From positions 3,424,001-3,488,000 of the forward strand of contig CAVXRD010000002.1 of the NCBI GenBank assembly GCA_963764165.1: 64,000 bases of DNA, in the 5' to 3' direction. Both the position numbers and the translations under genes were made by a program. This DNA is from an uncultured Verrucomicrobiae bacterium. GTDB lineage: Bacteria; Verrucomicrobiota; Verrucomicrobiia; Limisphaerales; Palsa-1400. Shown one piece after another: positions 40,898 through 49,329 of the stretch; positions within the stretch are counted from its first letter, which is position 1; every line of letters starts with the position of its first letter. The notes under the pieces are model-generated. The model worked only from the letters and a program-made list of their open reading frames with translations. It had not been told where the DNA came from and did not search any database.

Positions 40898-41278
40898 TCA
40901 AACGACATGCAGCGAGTCTTCGTCGATAAACAGATTTCGAGTTCGAAATGGGGCCGGGCTGCTGATGAGCAGATAATTTCGGATCGCAGTCCCCGGCGAT
41001 GCAAACCATGGTTCTGGAAGTTGCATGGGTGGCCAGGTCCAGGGGGGAGGTTCAGCATTCACTCGGACAGCCAGGTAAACGGCCAAAGCCTGCAAAAACG
41101 CATTTAATCGCGGCCCATCTGCGTGCCCATTCAAACTTGGCGGTTGCTCGATTAGCATCTCAATGCTGCCTCGATCATGGAACTCGTGGAGAAAGTCCTT
41201 AATTTCGTAACCTGGCGTTCCGCCGCCAAGAATGCGATAACCGACCTCACTTAATGTTTGGGGCCGCTGAAAGTTCAT
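40898..41278 (-). CDS. Hypothetical partner of the nucleotidyltransferase (putative antitoxin-like)
   Basis: PP..G..RLNAFLQALAVYLA...PPPW...PWF...SPAPFRTRNLFI. Overlaps the 3' end of the upstream NTase gene. Confidence 0.6.
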   Translation of the reverse strand: MNFQRPQTLSEVGYRILGGGTPGYEIKDFLHEFHDRGSIEMLIEQPPSLNGHADGPRLNAFLQALAVYLAVRVNAEPPPWTWPPMQLPEPWFASPGTAIRNYLLISSPAPFRTRNLFIDEDSLHVV

Positions 41279-41807
41279 TGCAAATTTCCTCGACGAAGTA
41301 TTGGGTTTTGGCTGGGATTCGTTTTTCTTCATAATACTTCCCGACGGTTGCGAGAACTGCGGTGCTGTCCGGAAGCCTAAGGCGCTGAATCAAAAACTTG
41401 GCGTCTGCCTTGTCGTGTTCATCCACACCCACCCGGGCGGAAATGCATTTCATCGCAAGTATATATTCCGCCGGTGGAGATACCACCCTGAGATGACTCA
41501 TCTTGAGCAACTCCTCGCTTTCAAATGATTGAGCGGACGCGAAGCCTTTTGCCCCATCGTTGAGCCATGACGCCGGGATTTTTTCCTGCTCAGCAACTCG
41601 TTGGACAGCGTCGCGGACACTCCTTGGCGTCACCAGCAAAGCGTCGATGTCCCGGGTGCTATTTCTGCTTCCAAAGCCCAACACCATTGCCGCTCCGCCA
41701 ACGATGCAGATTTCTCCCGTGACCTTCTCTTTTTGAAGTTCATCATTCAGCTTTTCCAGCAATGCCTGCAACTGCTCTCTGTTGAAGTGGGGCGCTTCGA
41801 TCTTCAT
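41247..41807 (-). CDS. DUF6036-like nucleotidyltransferase
   Basis: ICIVGGAAM....RNSTRDIDAL, WLNDGAKGF and YILAMK...R...DKAD. Confidence 0.8.
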   Translation of the reverse strand: MKIEAPHFNREQLQALLEKLNDELQKEKVTGEICIVGGAAMVLGFGSRNSTRDIDALLVTPRSVRDAVQRVAEQEKIPASWLNDGAKGFASAQSFESEELLKMSHLRVVSPPAEYILAMKCISARVGVDEHDKADAKFLIQRLRLPDSTAVLATVGKYYEEKRIPAKTQYFVEEICNELSAAPNIK

Positions 41808-43271: not shown

Positions 43272-43335
43272 TTTGGGCGGATACGCAGGTCCGCCCTACC
43301 AAATTATGGTAGGGCGGCGCTGCGTCGCCGCCCAA
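43272..43335. repeat. GTAG-type REP doublet (copy 1)
   Basis: tttgggcggatacgcaggtccgccctacc-aaattat-ggtagggcggcgctgcgtcgccgcccaaa. Confidence 0.88.
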
Positions 43336-43447
43336 ATATTATCGAGAGCTTCACCCACCTTCAATGATACCCTTCACCATTGACGGCTAAGCGTTCGCAT
43401 GTGCGAGCCGACCGCATTCAGAATTGCAACTATGCTGGCGACCCCTT

Positions 43448-43633
43448 TTACGATACTTTTCGCGCGCTTCGCTTTGGCGCGCGCTTCGCTTGCTGAGTCT
43501 TGACAGCGAACTTGCCTCCTGATTCTGCTTCGCAACGGCGAATGTCTTCGCCGATGGCGTGAACGTCAAAATTGAATCGCTTCGCGTAATCCGTGCGGCG
43601 GCGGTGGATTTCTTGAACAATTGGATCTTTCAT
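43448..43633 (-). CDS. Small hypothetical protein, antitoxin-like
   Basis: MKDPIVQEIHRRRTDYAKRFNFDVHAIGEDIR resembles small ORFs usually found beside PIN genes. This is from recall, not a search. Confidence 0.6.
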   Translation of the reverse strand: MKDPIVQEIHRRRTDYAKRFNFDVHAIGEDIRRCEAESGGKFAVKTQQAKRAPKRSARKVS

Positions 43634-43636
43634 ACT

Positions 43637-43888
43637 TCACAGCCGGAAGGGTTTTACTAGATCGTCGGGCATCCGGGGCGGTTCCCAATCAGTGGTGCCA
43701 CGAACAGACTCGTGCCAGTCTTTGAACTTCTGTTTGCGGCGGGCCAACGCGCTCTGACGGGACGTGGGGCGCGGGCGGACAGGGGACTTGACATTTGCGT
43801 GTCGTTTATCCAGCCAGCCCAACAATTCCCGCGCCTGCTCAGCAGACAATTTCTTGACCTTTTTAACTGCGAGTTCAACCGCGCTCAT
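43637..43888 (-). CDS. Small hypothetical protein, DUF2281-like antitoxin
   Basis: MSAVELAVKKVKKLSAEQARELLGWL. It ends 3 nt before the next small ORF. Confidence 0.55.
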   Translation of the reverse strand: MSAVELAVKKVKKLSAEQARELLGWLDKRHANVKSPVRPRPTSRQSALARRKQKFKDWHESVRGTTDWEPPRMPDDLVKPFRL

Positions 43889-44051
43889 CACAATAATGCG
43901 TTACCCTTGACCGTCGTAATGATTGCCCGCAAGCAAGTCTAAATCCAGCGCGGACGCGCCACGACTCCAGGATAGAATGTGATCGAAAGTGAATGATGGA
44001 CGCAGGCCGACAGGCGGAGCCATGCGAAAGCATGCGCTCAGATGCTCGGCC

Positions 44052-45671
44052 TCAAGTTCGCCTACGCCATCCTTCTACAACTCTCACTATGCCCTCGGCA
44101 ACGTTGTGCCAAGCCTCGGAACGTCGCGTCCAGTTCGCTACCGGCTTTCCGTCTCGCGGGAGCGCTTGCAGCTTTCCGAAAGGCGCCCTTTTCCAGAGGC
44201 AGTTCTTTAAGATAATTGGAATCACGCATGCCTCGCCCCTTTTATCTCGCTTTAATGCTGTCTTCATCTCGATCTCATAGCAGTAGTCGGAGGCCAAAAA
44301 ATCAGCGCTAACCAAAAGTAATATTACATCTGCGCTAGCGAACCTCTCGTCGATTACGTCCTTCCACCTATCGCCCGGCATGATCTTACGATCATGCCAC
44401 GGCGTAATAAGGCCGTTGCGATGTAGTGTCTTAAGGTGAACTGCTAAACTGTCCCTCAACTTCTCGTCGTTGTGTGAATAACTGAACACCAAATTAATCG
44501 CTTCTTCGCGTTTCTTCGTTGCTGGGCGCCGTCGTCGCCCTCGGCTTGCTGCTTTGGAAACTTTCTCGGTCAAAAATCCGGAAATAAATGCCCAATAAAG
44601 ACTACCGACTCGCCTTAGCGCCTTGTCTTCCCAAGAGGCGATTCCGGTAAACTGGAGCTCCTCACCGACACGGTCAGCATTAAACTCATCAAGGCCTTCT
44701 TTCTTTAAATGCCGCACTATATCACCAAAAGACAGCGTCTTCTTGGTTGCTAAAAGTCCGTGAATATGCCTTGCCTCCTCGGATAAAGAATTATACCAAA
44801 GCCTAAAGAGTTCTGCATGCTGTCTAACAAAGACCTCCGCAATTTGATTCAGAGGGGCGTCGCTTTCGGTATTATACGGCAATCTCCTAAGTAGGCCAGA
44901 TGTTAATCCCGCATGCCCACCAGTTTGCGCCAACAGCCATAATCCTAGGCGGTCAATAGGCGTCTTGGCTTGCCCCAATTTCAAAGCCTTGATTAATTGA
45001 TTAGTTCCGTCCTTGGAAAGGCTCCCTAAGAAGTGTTTGGAAGCCCGACTGCCTATAGGCGACGTGTCGTCTATACAAAGTCGATAAAGTTCCTGCGCTC
45101 CCGAAAAGAGCATCGTCACTCTTCCGCTCACGCCCAGATCGAGACCATAAAGCAGAGAAAACAAGTTGTCCTGGAATCCCCTAGGAAATCTCTCACCCAA
45201 TATCCTTTTCGACTCATCGAGCAAGTAAAGCAGTCGTATATGTCTAACTTTCGTCGCGTGAAGAATCCGCATCACTGCGTCCGCAAAAAATTCGACCGAG
45301 CTAGCGCCCTTTTTTATATTAAATGTTCGAATTTCAAGCAGAAATCCAGGCGCTATTCTCCTACATACGTCTACAGTTGCAGACACCAGCTTCTCAAAGA
45401 AGACCACGGGTGTTGCATCTTCTTGCAGTTCGAGCAAGTTTACGTAGATTGCAACGTCCCGATCTACGTTTTCTGGCGATGCAAAGCGCTCATTCACATC
45501 CCTTTGCAATTTGAGTAGAAACGTCGTCTTGCCCGACTGCCTCCCGCCAAATAGCAGAGCCGACTTGTTTTGCGTCAACGCGTATAAAACCTCGCTCGCA
45601 AATAAGTCCCTTCCAAAGCAAAAACCGGCGCTTGGAAGAATGCTGGGGCCTTTACTAGGACCGTGTCGCAT
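44052..45671 (-). CDS. STAND/AAA-like P-loop ATPase with C-terminal TIR domain
   Basis: FCFGR, Walker A GGRQSGKTT, Walker B LLYLLDE and TGGHA. TIR region VFSYSHND..WHDRKIMPG..LLLVSADFLASDYCYEIE..VIPIILK. Confidence 0.9.
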   Translation of the reverse strand: MRHGPSKGPSILPSAGFCFGRDLFASEVLYALTQNKSALLFGGRQSGKTTFLLKLQRDVNERFASPENVDRDVAIYVNLLELQEDATPVVFFEKLVSATVDVCRRIAPGFLLEIRTFNIKKGASSVEFFADAVMRILHATKVRHIRLLYLLDESKRILGERFPRGFQDNLFSLLYGLDLGVSGRVTMLFSGAQELYRLCIDDTSPIGSRASKHFLGSLSKDGTNQLIKALKLGQAKTPIDRLGLWLLAQTGGHAGLTSGLLRRLPYNTESDAPLNQIAEVFVRQHAELFRLWYNSLSEEARHIHGLLATKKTLSFGDIVRHLKKEGLDEFNADRVGEELQFTGIASWEDKALRRVGSLYWAFISGFLTEKVSKAASRGRRRRPATKKREEAINLVFSYSHNDEKLRDSLAVHLKTLHRNGLITPWHDRKIMPGDRWKDVIDERFASADVILLLVSADFLASDYCYEIEMKTALKRDKRGEACVIPIILKNCLWKRAPFGKLQALPRDGKPVANWTRRSEAWHNVAEGIVRVVEGWRRRT

Positions 45672-48228
45672 AAGTGCGATGTAGCCATCGGTTAAGCAGC
45701 TCCATTGTTAACGAAGCCCGTTGATTCCGGACCGTGATGATTTGATACCCTTCCAAATGGCGCAAGCTCGTATGAAGCTTCTGCGAGCCTTGCATTAGCT
45801 GATTGATCGGCAGTGATCCGCCATTTCTCGATAACTTGAGGCAGGACTCACGTTCCTCGGGGTAGTCGCGTGTGAGTCTGGCAAAAATCTCCGCAAAATC
45901 CTTTTCGCCGACTGCATCGATATACCGATCAAGGACGTCTTCGACCATTGAGTGCGTAACGTGCAACGGACGGTCGGAGTACTGCTTCGCTATGAAACTG
46001 CACAGCTGGCGAGTGAAAAATGGGTGCCCGCCTGTTAGTTCGAAGATATAGTTACAGACCAAATCGTCATGATATCGAATTCCCATCCCACGACCAAGTG
46101 TGCGGATCATCTCTGTGCATTCCGCCGTATCGAAAAACTGCAGGTAAACCTCGCGAAAAAAATTGAACACGGGATTGTCTCGTTCGTCAAACTGGGGAAT
46201 CTCGCCGATTGAGGCGTTTGCGGCGGTTACCAGCATCGTGAATTGCTTAGTCTCTTGGCAAACTCCACGAAGGTATCCAAAAAAATCAAAAAAGCCCTTA
46301 AATCCCCGACCTAGCCTTGTGGGAAGAAGGCTTTCAACTTCATCGAGCAGAAGCACGACCTTTGGAGCGGGTGTCAAACTGCTCTTCTCAATCGCATGAA
46401 TCACCCGGCTGAGATCAGAGTCAAAGGCTGTTCCGACAGGTAGATCTTGGGGTACGTCTAGGTAGTCGGAATACTTTCCACCCAACCGCCATTGAAAATT
46501 AGAGAGCGGAAGCTGGCTGAAGCGTTGATTGAGGAGATTGGCCATGCGCCAATAAAGCCACCTTGCATCCGAAATTTCGGTTGGAACGCGTAAGAGATCG
46601 ACGTAAATTACGATATCCCCATTTTCGGACGAGCGAATTTGCGCCTCCTGCAGGAGTGATGTCTTCCCGACCTTGCGAAGTCCGAACAGCCCCGTAGGAG
46701 TGCTAGTGTGAATTGCGTCACGGATGTCAGCAAGTGCTTTTCCTCTACCAAAGAACCGGCGGCCTTTTACCGGCGAATTCAAAGCATAAAGATCGCGACG
46801 AAATAGCCAGTTATCTAAAATAGCTAATAACGTGCCGATCGGCTCCGCGGAGTTTTCGATTTCCTGTTGAGGAATGGGAACGATTGCCGTCCGTAATTCG
46901 CCTCTGTCCTCTATCCTGCTAAATAAGGCTCTTTGTACGGGCTCTGGTAGAGAGCCTACAACGAGCAACGCAACTTGATCATCTGCAACTCCATCGGGCA
47001 GTTGGCCCAGTCGTGTGTCCAGTGATTCTAGGTCAGCGATCGTTATGTTTGATTTGAACATACAGCGTATGAGCAACTGGCCCGTAAGACCATAGCTTTC
47101 GATCAACTCCACGCTATCTGTGCGAACAATAAAGTCTGCACCGACAGTTCCCGAAAAGACTTCGGCCTCAAGTATGTCTATGCCCCCATTGCGTAAAAAG
47201 TTAAAGACTAGATTGCCCCTATAATGTCCTCGGATTTTCGCTAAGTTGTGTGCTAGCAAATGCTGATGTAGTGGCCCCCCTGAACGGCCAAGCTGCGTGA
47301 ATCGTTCGATGCCTCCGTACGCGCGTATTGCATCTTCGTAGAATAATACTGATTCTCGTAGAGAGTCGGGCGTTCCCATGCGATAGTATGTATATCCTAG
47401 GGATGTAAGTATTCCCTTTTCACCTGCGCGATCTCCGCCTAGACAAAGCTGGAGAGCTGATCTCAAGTACTTAATGGCGTTATCGTATCTCTCAAGCGAT
47501 GCGGCCAACACTCCTGCCTCCTCCAAAATTTTCGTGCTGTGGGGAAACAAACGTATCCCCTCTTGGTATATCTTCAGAGCTTGTTCCTTTGAGTTGCGAT
47601 TCTTGTTGAATGCGGCATAACTCGATATTACGTGCTCCGTGGGAAACTCGAGCAAGGCTCGTCTATATAACCTATCGGCGTCGGGATATCGACGTTCTTC
47701 TCTGGCAAGAACGGCTTGCGCGAGCAAGTCGCGCGCGGGCCTTAGCACCGTATTTGGAAGGGAGATAATGACAACGTCCTGGGCCTGCGGTCCTTTGTCC
47801 GAATTGACTGGGCGGCAGCTGACCCTGTCCCCAACCGCCGGTAATACTGAGAGATCGGCGAGAAAACTGTAATGAAAGAAGAAGTCGCCACGTCTCGCTA
47901 TGCGAATGAAGCCAAAATGGCGTTCTGGACGTACCATTATAACTTCGCCTAAAACCATTTCGGTAATCTCTAAAGGTTCTGTACGCGAATCTAATTCTGG
48001 ATGCACATCTGTCGCCAACGTTCCGTTCTGCACTGCTTTTGTCGTGAAGATCACGCGATCGCCAGACTGCAACACTAACGTTGGGTCGCGAAGAGACTTT
48101 CGATGAACGAGAAATAGATCGGACGTCGCACCTTCTTCGTCTTCGGCCCGAATGTACCCGTATCCGCCTTTAGGCTCATACGTTTCGACCTGACCTCTTA
48201 AGTAATTTGGACTGTCTGTGTGAGGCAT
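45655..48228 (-). CDS. Multidomain protein: 2x cold-shock domain - TPR - REase-like region - STAND ATPase
   Basis: CSD RNP1/RNP2 motifs GGYGYI/LFLVH and HFGFI/FFFHYS, TPR repeats, GADFIV..LLIRC, FFGR, Walker A GLRKVGKTS, Walker B VVLLLDEVE and TGGHPFF. Confidence 0.85.
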   Translation of the reverse strand: MPHTDSPNYLRGQVETYEPKGGYGYIRAEDEEGATSDLFLVHRKSLRDPTLVLQSGDRVIFTTKAVQNGTLATDVHPELDSRTEPLEITEMVLGEVIMVRPERHFGFIRIARRGDFFFHYSFLADLSVLPAVGDRVSCRPVNSDKGPQAQDVVIISLPNTVLRPARDLLAQAVLAREERRYPDADRLYRRALLEFPTEHVISSYAAFNKNRNSKEQALKIYQEGIRLFPHSTKILEEAGVLAASLERYDNAIKYLRSALQLCLGGDRAGEKGILTSLGYTYYRMGTPDSLRESVLFYEDAIRAYGGIERFTQLGRSGGPLHQHLLAHNLAKIRGHYRGNLVFNFLRNGGIDILEAEVFSGTVGADFIVRTDSVELIESYGLTGQLLIRCMFKSNITIADLESLDTRLGQLPDGVADDQVALLVVGSLPEPVQRALFSRIEDRGELRTAIVPIPQQEIENSAEPIGTLLAILDNWLFRRDLYALNSPVKGRRFFGRGKALADIRDAIHTSTPTGLFGLRKVGKTSLLQEAQIRSSENGDIVIYVDLLRVPTEISDARWLYWRMANLLNQRFSQLPLSNFQWRLGGKYSDYLDVPQDLPVGTAFDSDLSRVIHAIEKSSLTPAPKVVLLLDEVESLLPTRLGRGFKGFFDFFGYLRGVCQETKQFTMLVTAANASIGEIPQFDERDNPVFNFFREVYLQFFDTAECTEMIRTLGRGMGIRYHDDLVCNYIFELTGGHPFFTRQLCSFIAKQYSDRPLHVTHSMVEDVLDRYIDAVGEKDFAEIFARLTRDYPEERESCLKLSRNGGSLPINQLMQGSQKLHTSLRHLEGYQIITVRNQRASLTMELLNRWLHRTYATRS

Positions 48229-48516
48229 GGATGCACGAACTGTGTTGCAAATTGCAAGCTTCGTCAAGGGCAAAGGTATCACCCCGGTTCCCGGTGTCAA
48301 TTCAATTGATCGTGCTAACCACATATTTCACATGTGATGTGATTATGCGGGAGTGACCTCTTTTTCGGAGCCTTTTATACAAGACTAAAACCGCAGACAG
48401 CGGCTTTGAAAAACGGTTGAGGAATATAGGATTGACACGCCTCAGCGCCGACATTTGGTCCTCGAACCGTGAACAATATGTGAATAACTGTGAATAATGT
48501 CAACTTGTATCGCGGG

Positions 48517-48603
48517 CTAAAGCGCCTGCAAACCGAAATCGCCGCCGAATTGGACGCCTTGCTTCCCGCCATCCTCGACCGCGCCTTCAAGGGAGAGATT
48601 TGA
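48517..48603 (+). pseudogene. hsdS: 3'-terminal remnant of a type I restriction-modification specificity subunit
   Basis: Translates as LKRLQTEIAAELDALLPAILDRAFKGEI*, the characteristic HsdS C-terminus. No upstream gene body. Confidence 0.75.
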
Positions 48604-48615
48604 TGGCTGTCCGAA

Positions 48616-48850
48616 AATCCCGAAGGGATTTTATCATTCAGCCCAGCGTTGACCCGATTCTGAGAGGGCCTACGCTGGGTCATTGCGGTTAATGTTTACC
48701 AACCCTGCAAGGGTTGAATCAAACTCGAAGCGAAGCGCGGGTGGAATTGATGCAACCCATTCAGGGTTGGGGCCTTCGAATGCAGTTACCCAGGGTAGGC
48801 CTCTTTGAATCGGCCAACCCTGGGCTAAATGATCCAATTCCTTTGGAATT
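48616..48850. repeat. Long imperfect inverted repeat (AGCCCAGGGTTG-type REP/MITE)
   Basis: atcattcagcccagcgttgacccgattc (48633) against gaatcggccaaccctgggctaaatgat (48807), with inner caaccc..gggttg hairpins. Confidence 0.75.
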
Positions 48851-49040
48851 GTTGGCTGGCTGCCGTTGCACTGCGGGTGAAAGCCCCGGCGCGAAGGGGA
48901 GGGTGCAGGTTGATTTCAATCACCTCCCACCGGAACGAAATGTTGCAGTACCTGTTGCACTCTTGTAGCAGTAAATGTTGCACTTTATCTCATTGAGGCT
49001 CAACGATGTAGCGGATGTTGCAGTCTTCTGGAGATTATAT

Positions 49041-49329
49041 AATCTGGAACTCAAGAAATCAGGAACGGAGGGCACTGTCGTGTTGGGCGGAATGTGGTTG
49101 GACCTGCGCTAGACGTGGGTTGAATTGGCGGAAATTTGGGCGGACACGCAGGTCCGCCCTACCAAATTGAGGTAGGGCGGTGCTGCGTCGCCGCCCAATA
49201 ATTTTCCCTGTTTCACGCCCGCATTTCATCGCAATTGCCAAGCCAGGAATTCTCCCGCGTCGGTCGCGTTCTCCAGCCCGCTTGCATGGTTTCGGAACCC
49301 TCATTTCCTGCGTTAGGTCGTTCCAGATT
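49041..49329. repeat. Degenerate copy of the AATCTGGAACTCAGGAA inverted-repeat element with a nested REP doublet
   Basis: aatctggaactcaagaaatcaggaa at 49041 and tttcctg...gttccagatt ending at 49329. Compare 52015-52190. Confidence 0.65.
49135..49198. repeat. GTAG-type REP doublet (copy 2)
   Basis: Direct repeat of 43272-43334 with 4 mismatches over 63 nt. Confidence 0.88.

Follow-up and report, generated by a model that had tools for sequence, protein, structure and literature searches.

The window analysed here is a 64,000-nucleotide stretch of contig CAVXRD010000002.1 from an uncultured Verrucomicrobiae bacterium. On its minus strand, between two genes that we name, from their sequences, dxr and hisB, lie two genes that each encode a STAND-type ATPase. 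The product of gene 1 joins two cold-shock domains (CSDs), a tetratricopeptide repeat (TPR) block and a restriction endonuclease (REase)-like segment to its ATPase plus a winged helix–turn–helix (wHTH), and that of gene 2 carries a TIR domain behind its own ATPase and wHTH (Table 1). The coordinates, the translations and the 17-nt overlap (45655–45671) agree with a preliminary description of this DNA made from its letters, and all the motifs read there were found: GLRKVGKTS, LLLDEVE and GGHP in gene 1, and GGRQSGKTT, YLLDE, GGHA and DYCYEIE (residues 462–468) in gene 2. The ATG of gene 1 is at 48228; its open frame reaches back to 48324 (889 amino acids (aa)), and aligned homologues mostly begin near the 857-aa start. 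With a GC content of 49.4% against 56.8% for the genome, the pair ranks among the lowest 1% when compared with 3491 windows of its size, and its third-position GC is 51% against 73–75% in three host genes. Low GC had been argued previously from counts of 25/60 and 42/60 in two lines of sequence; the counts are correct and the pair is low overall, although the quoted lines are extremes.

Table 1. Features of the gene pair and its flanks, in window positions
Feature	Coordinates	Strand	Description
Gene 1	45655..48228	-	857 aa; CSD–CSD–TPR–REase-like (probably inactive)–STAND ATPase–wHTH; predicted sensor subunit
CSD1	48001..48198	-	aa 11–76; RNP1 GYGYI kept, RNP2 = LVHR
CSD2	47767..47958	-	aa 91–154; canonical RNP1 FGFI and RNP2 FFH
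TPR/HAT-like helical block	47230..47742	-	aa 163–333; Pfam and AlphaFold model
Alpha/beta domain	46801..47223	-	aa 336–476; probably inactivated PD-(D/E)xK fold
STAND ATPase and winged helix, gene 1	45658..46800	-	aa 477–857; K522/T523 and D629/E630 invariant
Gene 2	44052..45671	-	539 aa; STAND ATPase–wHTH–TIR; predicted executor subunit
STAND ATPase and winged helix, gene 2	44562..45629	-	aa 15–370
TIR domain	44070..44495	-	aa 393–534; Glu468; most homologues have HEPN in this slot
72-nt palindromic repeat, downstream of pair	43272..43343		Multicopy in genome; repetitive extragenic palindrome (REP)-like
Second copy of 72-nt repeat, upstream of pair	49135..49206		90% identical, same orientation

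The two ATPases are homologous to each other (hhalign probability 99%, E 7.8e-18). They display the features of STAND ATPases: a P-loop core with Walker A and B, GR and GxP-type motifs, a winged helix and a fold resembling that of archaeal ATPases. The earlier assignment of a P-loop ATPase to each gene is correct, and the Walker motifs are nearly invariant among the homologues. K522/T523 and D629/E630 of gene 1 are kept in 120/120 proteins, a set found by a shared-word search, which favours invariant Walker motifs; in gene 2, K48 is kept in 130 and D152/E153 in all of 132 close homologues. Pfam matches gene 2 to AAA_22 and TIR_2 (E 6.6e-14 for the latter), and gene 1 to the CSD family PF00313 in two stretches (E 2.5e-13), to TPRs and weakly to the STAND-type ATPase families ATPase_2, AAA_35 and nSTAND. 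The AlphaFold model computed for gene 1 from 40 sequences (predicted local distance difference test (pLDDT) 83.6; predicted template-modelling score (pTM) 0.53) contains two beta units of five strands each, then helices forming a block, an alpha/beta domain and finally the P-loop ATPase and its winged helix. Foldseek ranks the archaeal ATPases 2qen and 2fna as closest to this model and lists Avs3 and RPP1 lower. Arg209 of gene 2, present in 132/132 proteins, sits where AAA+ arginine fingers sit and is a candidate finger; opposite it in the alignment gene 1 has residue 690, which is Phe or Tyr in 120/120 proteins. Complex prediction of both ATPase domains scored 0.00 in two runs and is used neither for nor against an interaction.

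The pair travels as a unit. Gene 1 gave 186 matches among 8000 scored candidates, and among the matches listed (119 besides gene 1 itself) identity was 42–66%. When contigs from genomes and metagenomes were scanned, 77 and 79 loci were obtained. They include a close clade in Acidobacteriota, Pseudomonadota, Verrucomicrobiota, Planctomycetota and Spirochaetota and a sister clade in Chloroflexota and Cyanobacteriota, and members occur in culturable Pseudomonas, Stenotrophomonas and Paraburkholderia. We scored loci in which the C terminus of gene 1 was complete and at least 500 bp followed, counting as partner a gene-2 ATPase within 400 bp. By this measure the partner follows gene 1 in 49/49 close and 29/29 sister loci (42 and 23 when non-redundant), a fixed linkage that upholds the proposed co-occurrence of sensor and executor genes. 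Ten close and five sister loci were unscorable, among them a truncated gene-1 remnant without partner (L032/L138). Distant loci have a gene-2-type partner in 17 of 37 cases, and at L015, L020 and L029, where gene 1 is a broken remnant, gene 2 is broken too. The GC content of the pair is below that of its flanks in 27/27 loci examined (in one marginally). A search of 60 host relatives, of which 38 reach 90% completeness with no more than 5% contamination, found full-length gene 1 in none; in the stretches compared for an empty site, four relatives share with window positions 39–54 kb only the putative dxr. By these sequence comparisons, the pair is a conserved, horizontally mobile two-gene cassette.

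What varies within the cassette is the tail of gene 2. The preliminary description had built on the C-terminal TIR with its DYCYEIE glutamate; the domain is there, and Glu468 aligns with the matching glutamate in the filament-forming TIR of Cat1, but TIR is not the family core and had been overweighted. The 42 non-redundant close loci from other genomes have 32 HEPN tails, 5 uncharacterised tails containing a coiled-coil-like stretch, 1 Schlafen AlbA_2, 1 HTH-like, 3 truncated and no TIR. In the sister clade (n = 23) there are 11 HEPN, 5 class III cyclase, 2 metallophosphoesterase, 1 CAP12-TIR and 1 membrane tail, with 3 truncated. HEPN tails were called with a profile built in this analysis, Pfam HEPN_Swt1 matches falling below the curated cut-off, and the other labels were assigned by hand. 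The 132 close gene-2 proteins, drawn from two top-120 lists and thus biased towards HEPN, comprise 126 with HEPN, 2 with TIR (including that of the window) and 4 with other or truncated tails; one further TIR-bearing protein is a fragment. The HEPN domain directly follows the wHTH in homologues, whose tails measure about 150–170 aa, and R(N/T)xxAH is kept in 115 of the 126. A quick tree built from 79 ATPase domains places gene 2 of the window in one group (SH-aLRT 99) with the TIR fragment and P0390, a protein whose tail is unrelated, and this group is nested in a mostly HEPN clade; TIR also appears on distant branches. Judged from these sequences, TIR is a rare replacement, and the family's default effector is a Swt1-like HEPN domain. 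Because tails vary and TIR is rare among them, the constant part of the system is the ATPase pair together with the head of gene 1.

Some gene-2 relatives depart from this pattern. A small subclade (Verrucomicrobiota where named; L006:12594-14309, L010:12549-14282, L014:12630-14504, L093, L094 and L137) has an eroded Walker B and a 220–250-aa tail without Pfam family. Erosion of Walker B in gene 2 is limited to this subclade, whose tails do not look enzymatic (L006, L010, L093), and these proteins are possibly regulatory versions. P0390 and L093 have short HTH-like tails. Myxobacteria have a distant and compact operon of two ATPase genes (about 520 + 530 aa; L035, L043, L045-L047, L049, L050 and L064), the second of which has a tail that carries a D...ExK nuclease-like motif without a Pfam match.

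The head of gene 1 combines recognisable and degenerate parts. Tandem CSDs with RNP1 and RNP2 aromatics had been proposed; RNP1 is present in both, but RNP2 is canonical in CSD2 only, the corresponding position of CSD1 reading L-V-H-R throughout the family. Four tandem CSDs occur in P0006 and P0012, and a sister-clade gene 1 (L021:2428-5181) opens with an excisionase/MAD1-like HTH ahead of its CSD; HTH_17 is present in 55% of the members of that clade's Atlas cluster. CSDs also occur in other conflict systems (PMC7159879, PMC11090510). Residues 336–476 are modelled with confidence (pLDDT 90) as helix–strand–strand–helix–strand–helix–strand–helix–strand, and in many distant proteins the domain again accompanies the ATPase (146 representatives gave 88 domain matches). 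The REase-like identity suggested earlier finds weak support in NA-iREase1, which matches the segment in 3 of 58 family members (best E 0.015); an Atlas search gave one lead at 0.82. A PDB sequence search with the domain profile returned nothing below E 0.25, and hhalign gave no match to REase-like, HEPN, TIR or uncharacterised tails. Position 365 is Asp or Glu in 117/120 gene-1 proteins and position 392 is Lys in 110/120, but position 390 is Met, Phe, Ile, Leu, Val or Tyr and never acidic among the residues listed (n = 120), so the catalytic D...(D/E)xK of PD-(D/E)xK nucleases is incomplete. The segment is probably a catalytically inactive REase-like domain.

We then compared the pair with described systems. 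No model in PADLOC 2.0 or NCBIfam 20.0 covers either gene, and no NCBIfam 20.0 model was found for 14 homologous proteins or tails; matches span single domains, in line with the novelty that had been proposed. Retron type V and Thoeris identities were rejected because their matches cover single domains only. The best PADLOC match of gene 2, ThsB1 (193.8 bits), extends over the TIR alone (profile 3–144 of 319); the TIR of the window resembles ThsB1 but is fused to a STAND ATPase, whereas ThsB is stand-alone and accompanied by ThsA, and no ThsA-like match was found in the pair or the 2–3 neighbours scanned. The Atlas labels the family 'hypothetical protein', and a literature search, with subscription journals mostly outside it, found no paper on this architecture. 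In fold, the ATPases resemble the MNS-clade STAND ATPases, nearest to Pab2304 (2qen) and SSO1545 (2fna). That clade, including the Npun2340/2341 family, was reportedly treated by Leipe in 2004.

The closest published precedent is nSTAND2 (Kaur et al. 2021, PMC8195603, Fig. 6C; PF20702), a mobile two-gene counter-invader system that is itself predicted only; the same paper names the Npun2340/2341 family and the MNS clade. There, two MNS-like STANDs are predicted to form a hetero-multimer, the second ATPase being inactive and carrying HEPN or GT4. Both systems pair adjacent genes, the first encoding a head, STAND and wHTH and the second STAND, wHTH and a variable effector, often HEPN, and both have MNS-like ATPases. 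They differ in that the effector ATPase of nSTAND2 is eroded whereas Walker A and B are intact in the window family; that nSTAND2 has TPRs before HEPN, or GT4, against TIR here and HEPN right after the wHTH elsewhere; and that, in the rows of its table examined, the CSD–CSD–TPR–inactive-REase-like head and the TIR of the window family are unmatched. For the nSTAND2 trait of an arginine finger in both proteins, gene 2 offers R209 and gene 1 the aligned F/Y, with R654 and R/K683 as alternatives. PF20702 does not match gene 2 of the window at E 0.1 or any of 18 gene-2 proteins at E 0.01, and it scores weakly on gene-1 ATPases only (14 bits here, 23.7 bits in the genome of L006). Sets of 301, 55 and 401 genomes yielded no intact nSTAND2 pair for direct comparison. 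The architecture, which the preliminary description did not recognise as a named system, has no PADLOC or NCBIfam model, but its two-STAND layout had already been predicted (PMC8195603).

Other systems share parts of the design. Avs proteins (PMC13581612) likewise combine a STAND ATPase, a TPR sensor and an enzymatic effector, and the oligomerisation for which they are known is predicted here. Avs is a single protein ordered effector–STAND–sensor, whereas the pair has an N-terminal sensor and a C-terminal effector on the second STAND; the reversal of order noted in the preliminary description is correct. No Avs or NLR-like (NLR, nucleotide-binding leucine-rich repeat receptor) profile in PADLOC 2.0 or NCBIfam 20.0 matches the pair. 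The survey in PMC13581612 covered 589 STAND clades and took sensors only as C-terminal regions of at least 400 aa; it would therefore have missed the head of gene 1, and its lists may include the ATPases of this family. Single-chain HEPN–STAND–TPR–S1 proteins are listed in PMC3710099 (Anantharaman 2013). These HEPN–STAND–TPR–S1/CSD proteins and SAMD9 have the same parts (HEPN or AlbA_2, STAND, TPR and a cold-shock-like OB fold), but in one chain, with one ATPase and in the order opposite to that of the pair. The pair apparently belongs to a family not yet described, of an already predicted kind, in which STAND ATPases are paired and the effector is exchangeable.

We favour, with a probability of roughly 60%, a reading in which the pair is a two-subunit abortive-infection switch with a predicted anti-phage role. 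The head of gene 1 (CSDs, TPR and inactive REase-like domain) would bind the trigger, for which a phage protein or phage RNA–protein complex is the likeliest candidate, and binding would free the gene-1 ATPase. Gene-2 subunits would join gene 1 in a mixed ring, in which R209 of gene 2 would complete the ATP site of its neighbour. The ring would bring the tails together, with HEPN RNases dimerising in most homologues and TIR domains stacking here; clustered TIR domains would cleave NAD+ and arrest the cell, and RNA would be cleaved in most homologues. We infer the trigger, the assembly and the chemistry from STAND, TIR and HEPN biology. A more specific version is doubtful and is offered tentatively: a widespread bacterial 'paired NLR' in which a sensor STAND headed by CSDs and TPRs would read phage RNA or RNA–protein complexes and would have to borrow the arginine finger of a fully active helper STAND bearing an interchangeable HEPN, Schlafen, TIR or cyclase effector, as an obligate sensor–helper resistosome with the Avs order reversed. 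That the pair serves defence, as first proposed, is probably right given a conserved mobile cassette with defence-type effectors swapped at one position, but defence genes are not significantly enriched around it.

Several observations weigh against the switch. The expected enrichment near defence genes was not significant: PADLOC matches (cut-off E 1e-10) lie within 5 kb of 14/27 loci and 5/16 control stretches, the latter from two genomes only (p 0.22), and a stricter hand count of clear defence genes gave 7/27 against 1/16 (p 0.22), the seven being a MADS-like cluster (L010), a DruE-like gene (L012), a methyltransferase (L013), TmtA pieces (L015), AriA-like and PDC-S39 genes (L017), AbiEi (L020) and an REase (L079). 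No homologues were found among 72,556 plasmid and 50,697 phage records. Among 120 gene-1 proteins, 97 have two CSDs, 18 one, 2 four and 3 none (these three look N-terminally incomplete), and the CSDs are degenerate in L017, L104 and L105; because their number varies and some are degenerate, the CSDs may be accessory rather than the sensor. For SAMD9, it is oligomerisation and not DNA binding that needs the OB fold (PMC12015307). Further basic residues are conserved in gene 1, namely R654 (120/120) and R/K683 (119/120), and gene 1 may possess an arginine finger of its own, so the contrast between R209 and F/Y690 is a lead rather than a result. Finally, the closest relatives of the TIR have ROCO GTPases, histidine kinases and cyclases as fusion partners.

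Because its nearest TIRs sit on such signalling proteins, the TIR of the window is possibly an adaptor or a signal maker for a separate effector within a defence pair, rather than a depleter of NAD+. The ThsB1 match and the cyclase tails of the sister clade, which indicate that the slot can house signal makers, agree with this, but the host genome holds no second TIR similar to that of gene 2 at E 1e-4, the neighbours scanned gave no ThsA-like match, and the default occupant of the slot is a direct-acting RNase-type domain; of the alternatives, we rate it the least probable. A stress or RNA-surveillance switch unrelated to phage, in which the CSDs would detect RNA that is damaged or stalled and the pair would then trigger dormancy or signalling, is improbable. 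The CSD head and the HEPN or Schlafen tails do point to RNA, the tails of some homologues are class III cyclases or HTH-like, and the lack of significant defence-island enrichment also suits it; yet sporadic multi-phylum spread, low GC in all 27 loci, absence from the 60 relatives and free effector exchange are traits of conflict systems.

The order of the genes, with the sensor first and a toxic-type gene second and translationally coupled, would also suit a guard or addiction module, which we regard as unlikely. Gene 1 would be bound to gene 2 constitutively and keep it inactive, its loss or capture would free the effector, and the CSDs and inactive REase-like domain would be decoys for phage or plasmid inhibitors. 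A conserved, apparently inactive nuclease-like domain fits a decoy, and the cassette lies amid REP-like repeats near an AbiE-like pair. The invariant Walker motifs of both ATPases suit an active switch instead, and the three loci with a broken gene 1 do not discriminate, as gene 2 is broken there as well.

Pairing of sensor and helper NLRs is prominent in plants and animals. As far as we found, each bacterial STAND receptor tested in print is one protein whose C-terminal sensor reads phage proteins, and for a bacterial operon of two STANDs there are so far only predictions. In a conserved pair with natural effector swaps, RNase and NAD+ activities could be read out on the same chassis, and the asymmetry between R209 in gene 2 and F/Y in gene 1 predicts which subunit drives which.

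Around the pair, multicopy palindromic intergenic repeats of several families crowd both flanks (43272-43343, 43880-44050 and 48330-49215). The flanking 72-nt repeat was considered as an attachment site and rejected; because it is multicopy in the genome, we regard it as REP-like. Just downstream of the pair, 43451-43891 (minus strand) holds open reading frames of 84 and 60 aa without Pfam match, and similar DNA occurs at two other sites in the genome. An AbiE-like gene pair lies 2.2 kb from the STAND pair (40898-41807, minus strand) and consists of a DUF6036 nucleotidyltransferase, which scores 27.8 bits in Pfam and so passes the cut-off, and a partner of 144 aa that matches no family. At L010, the MADS-like cluster (L010:1-9355, with mad2, mad3 and mad5 matches) directly adjoins the homologous pair.

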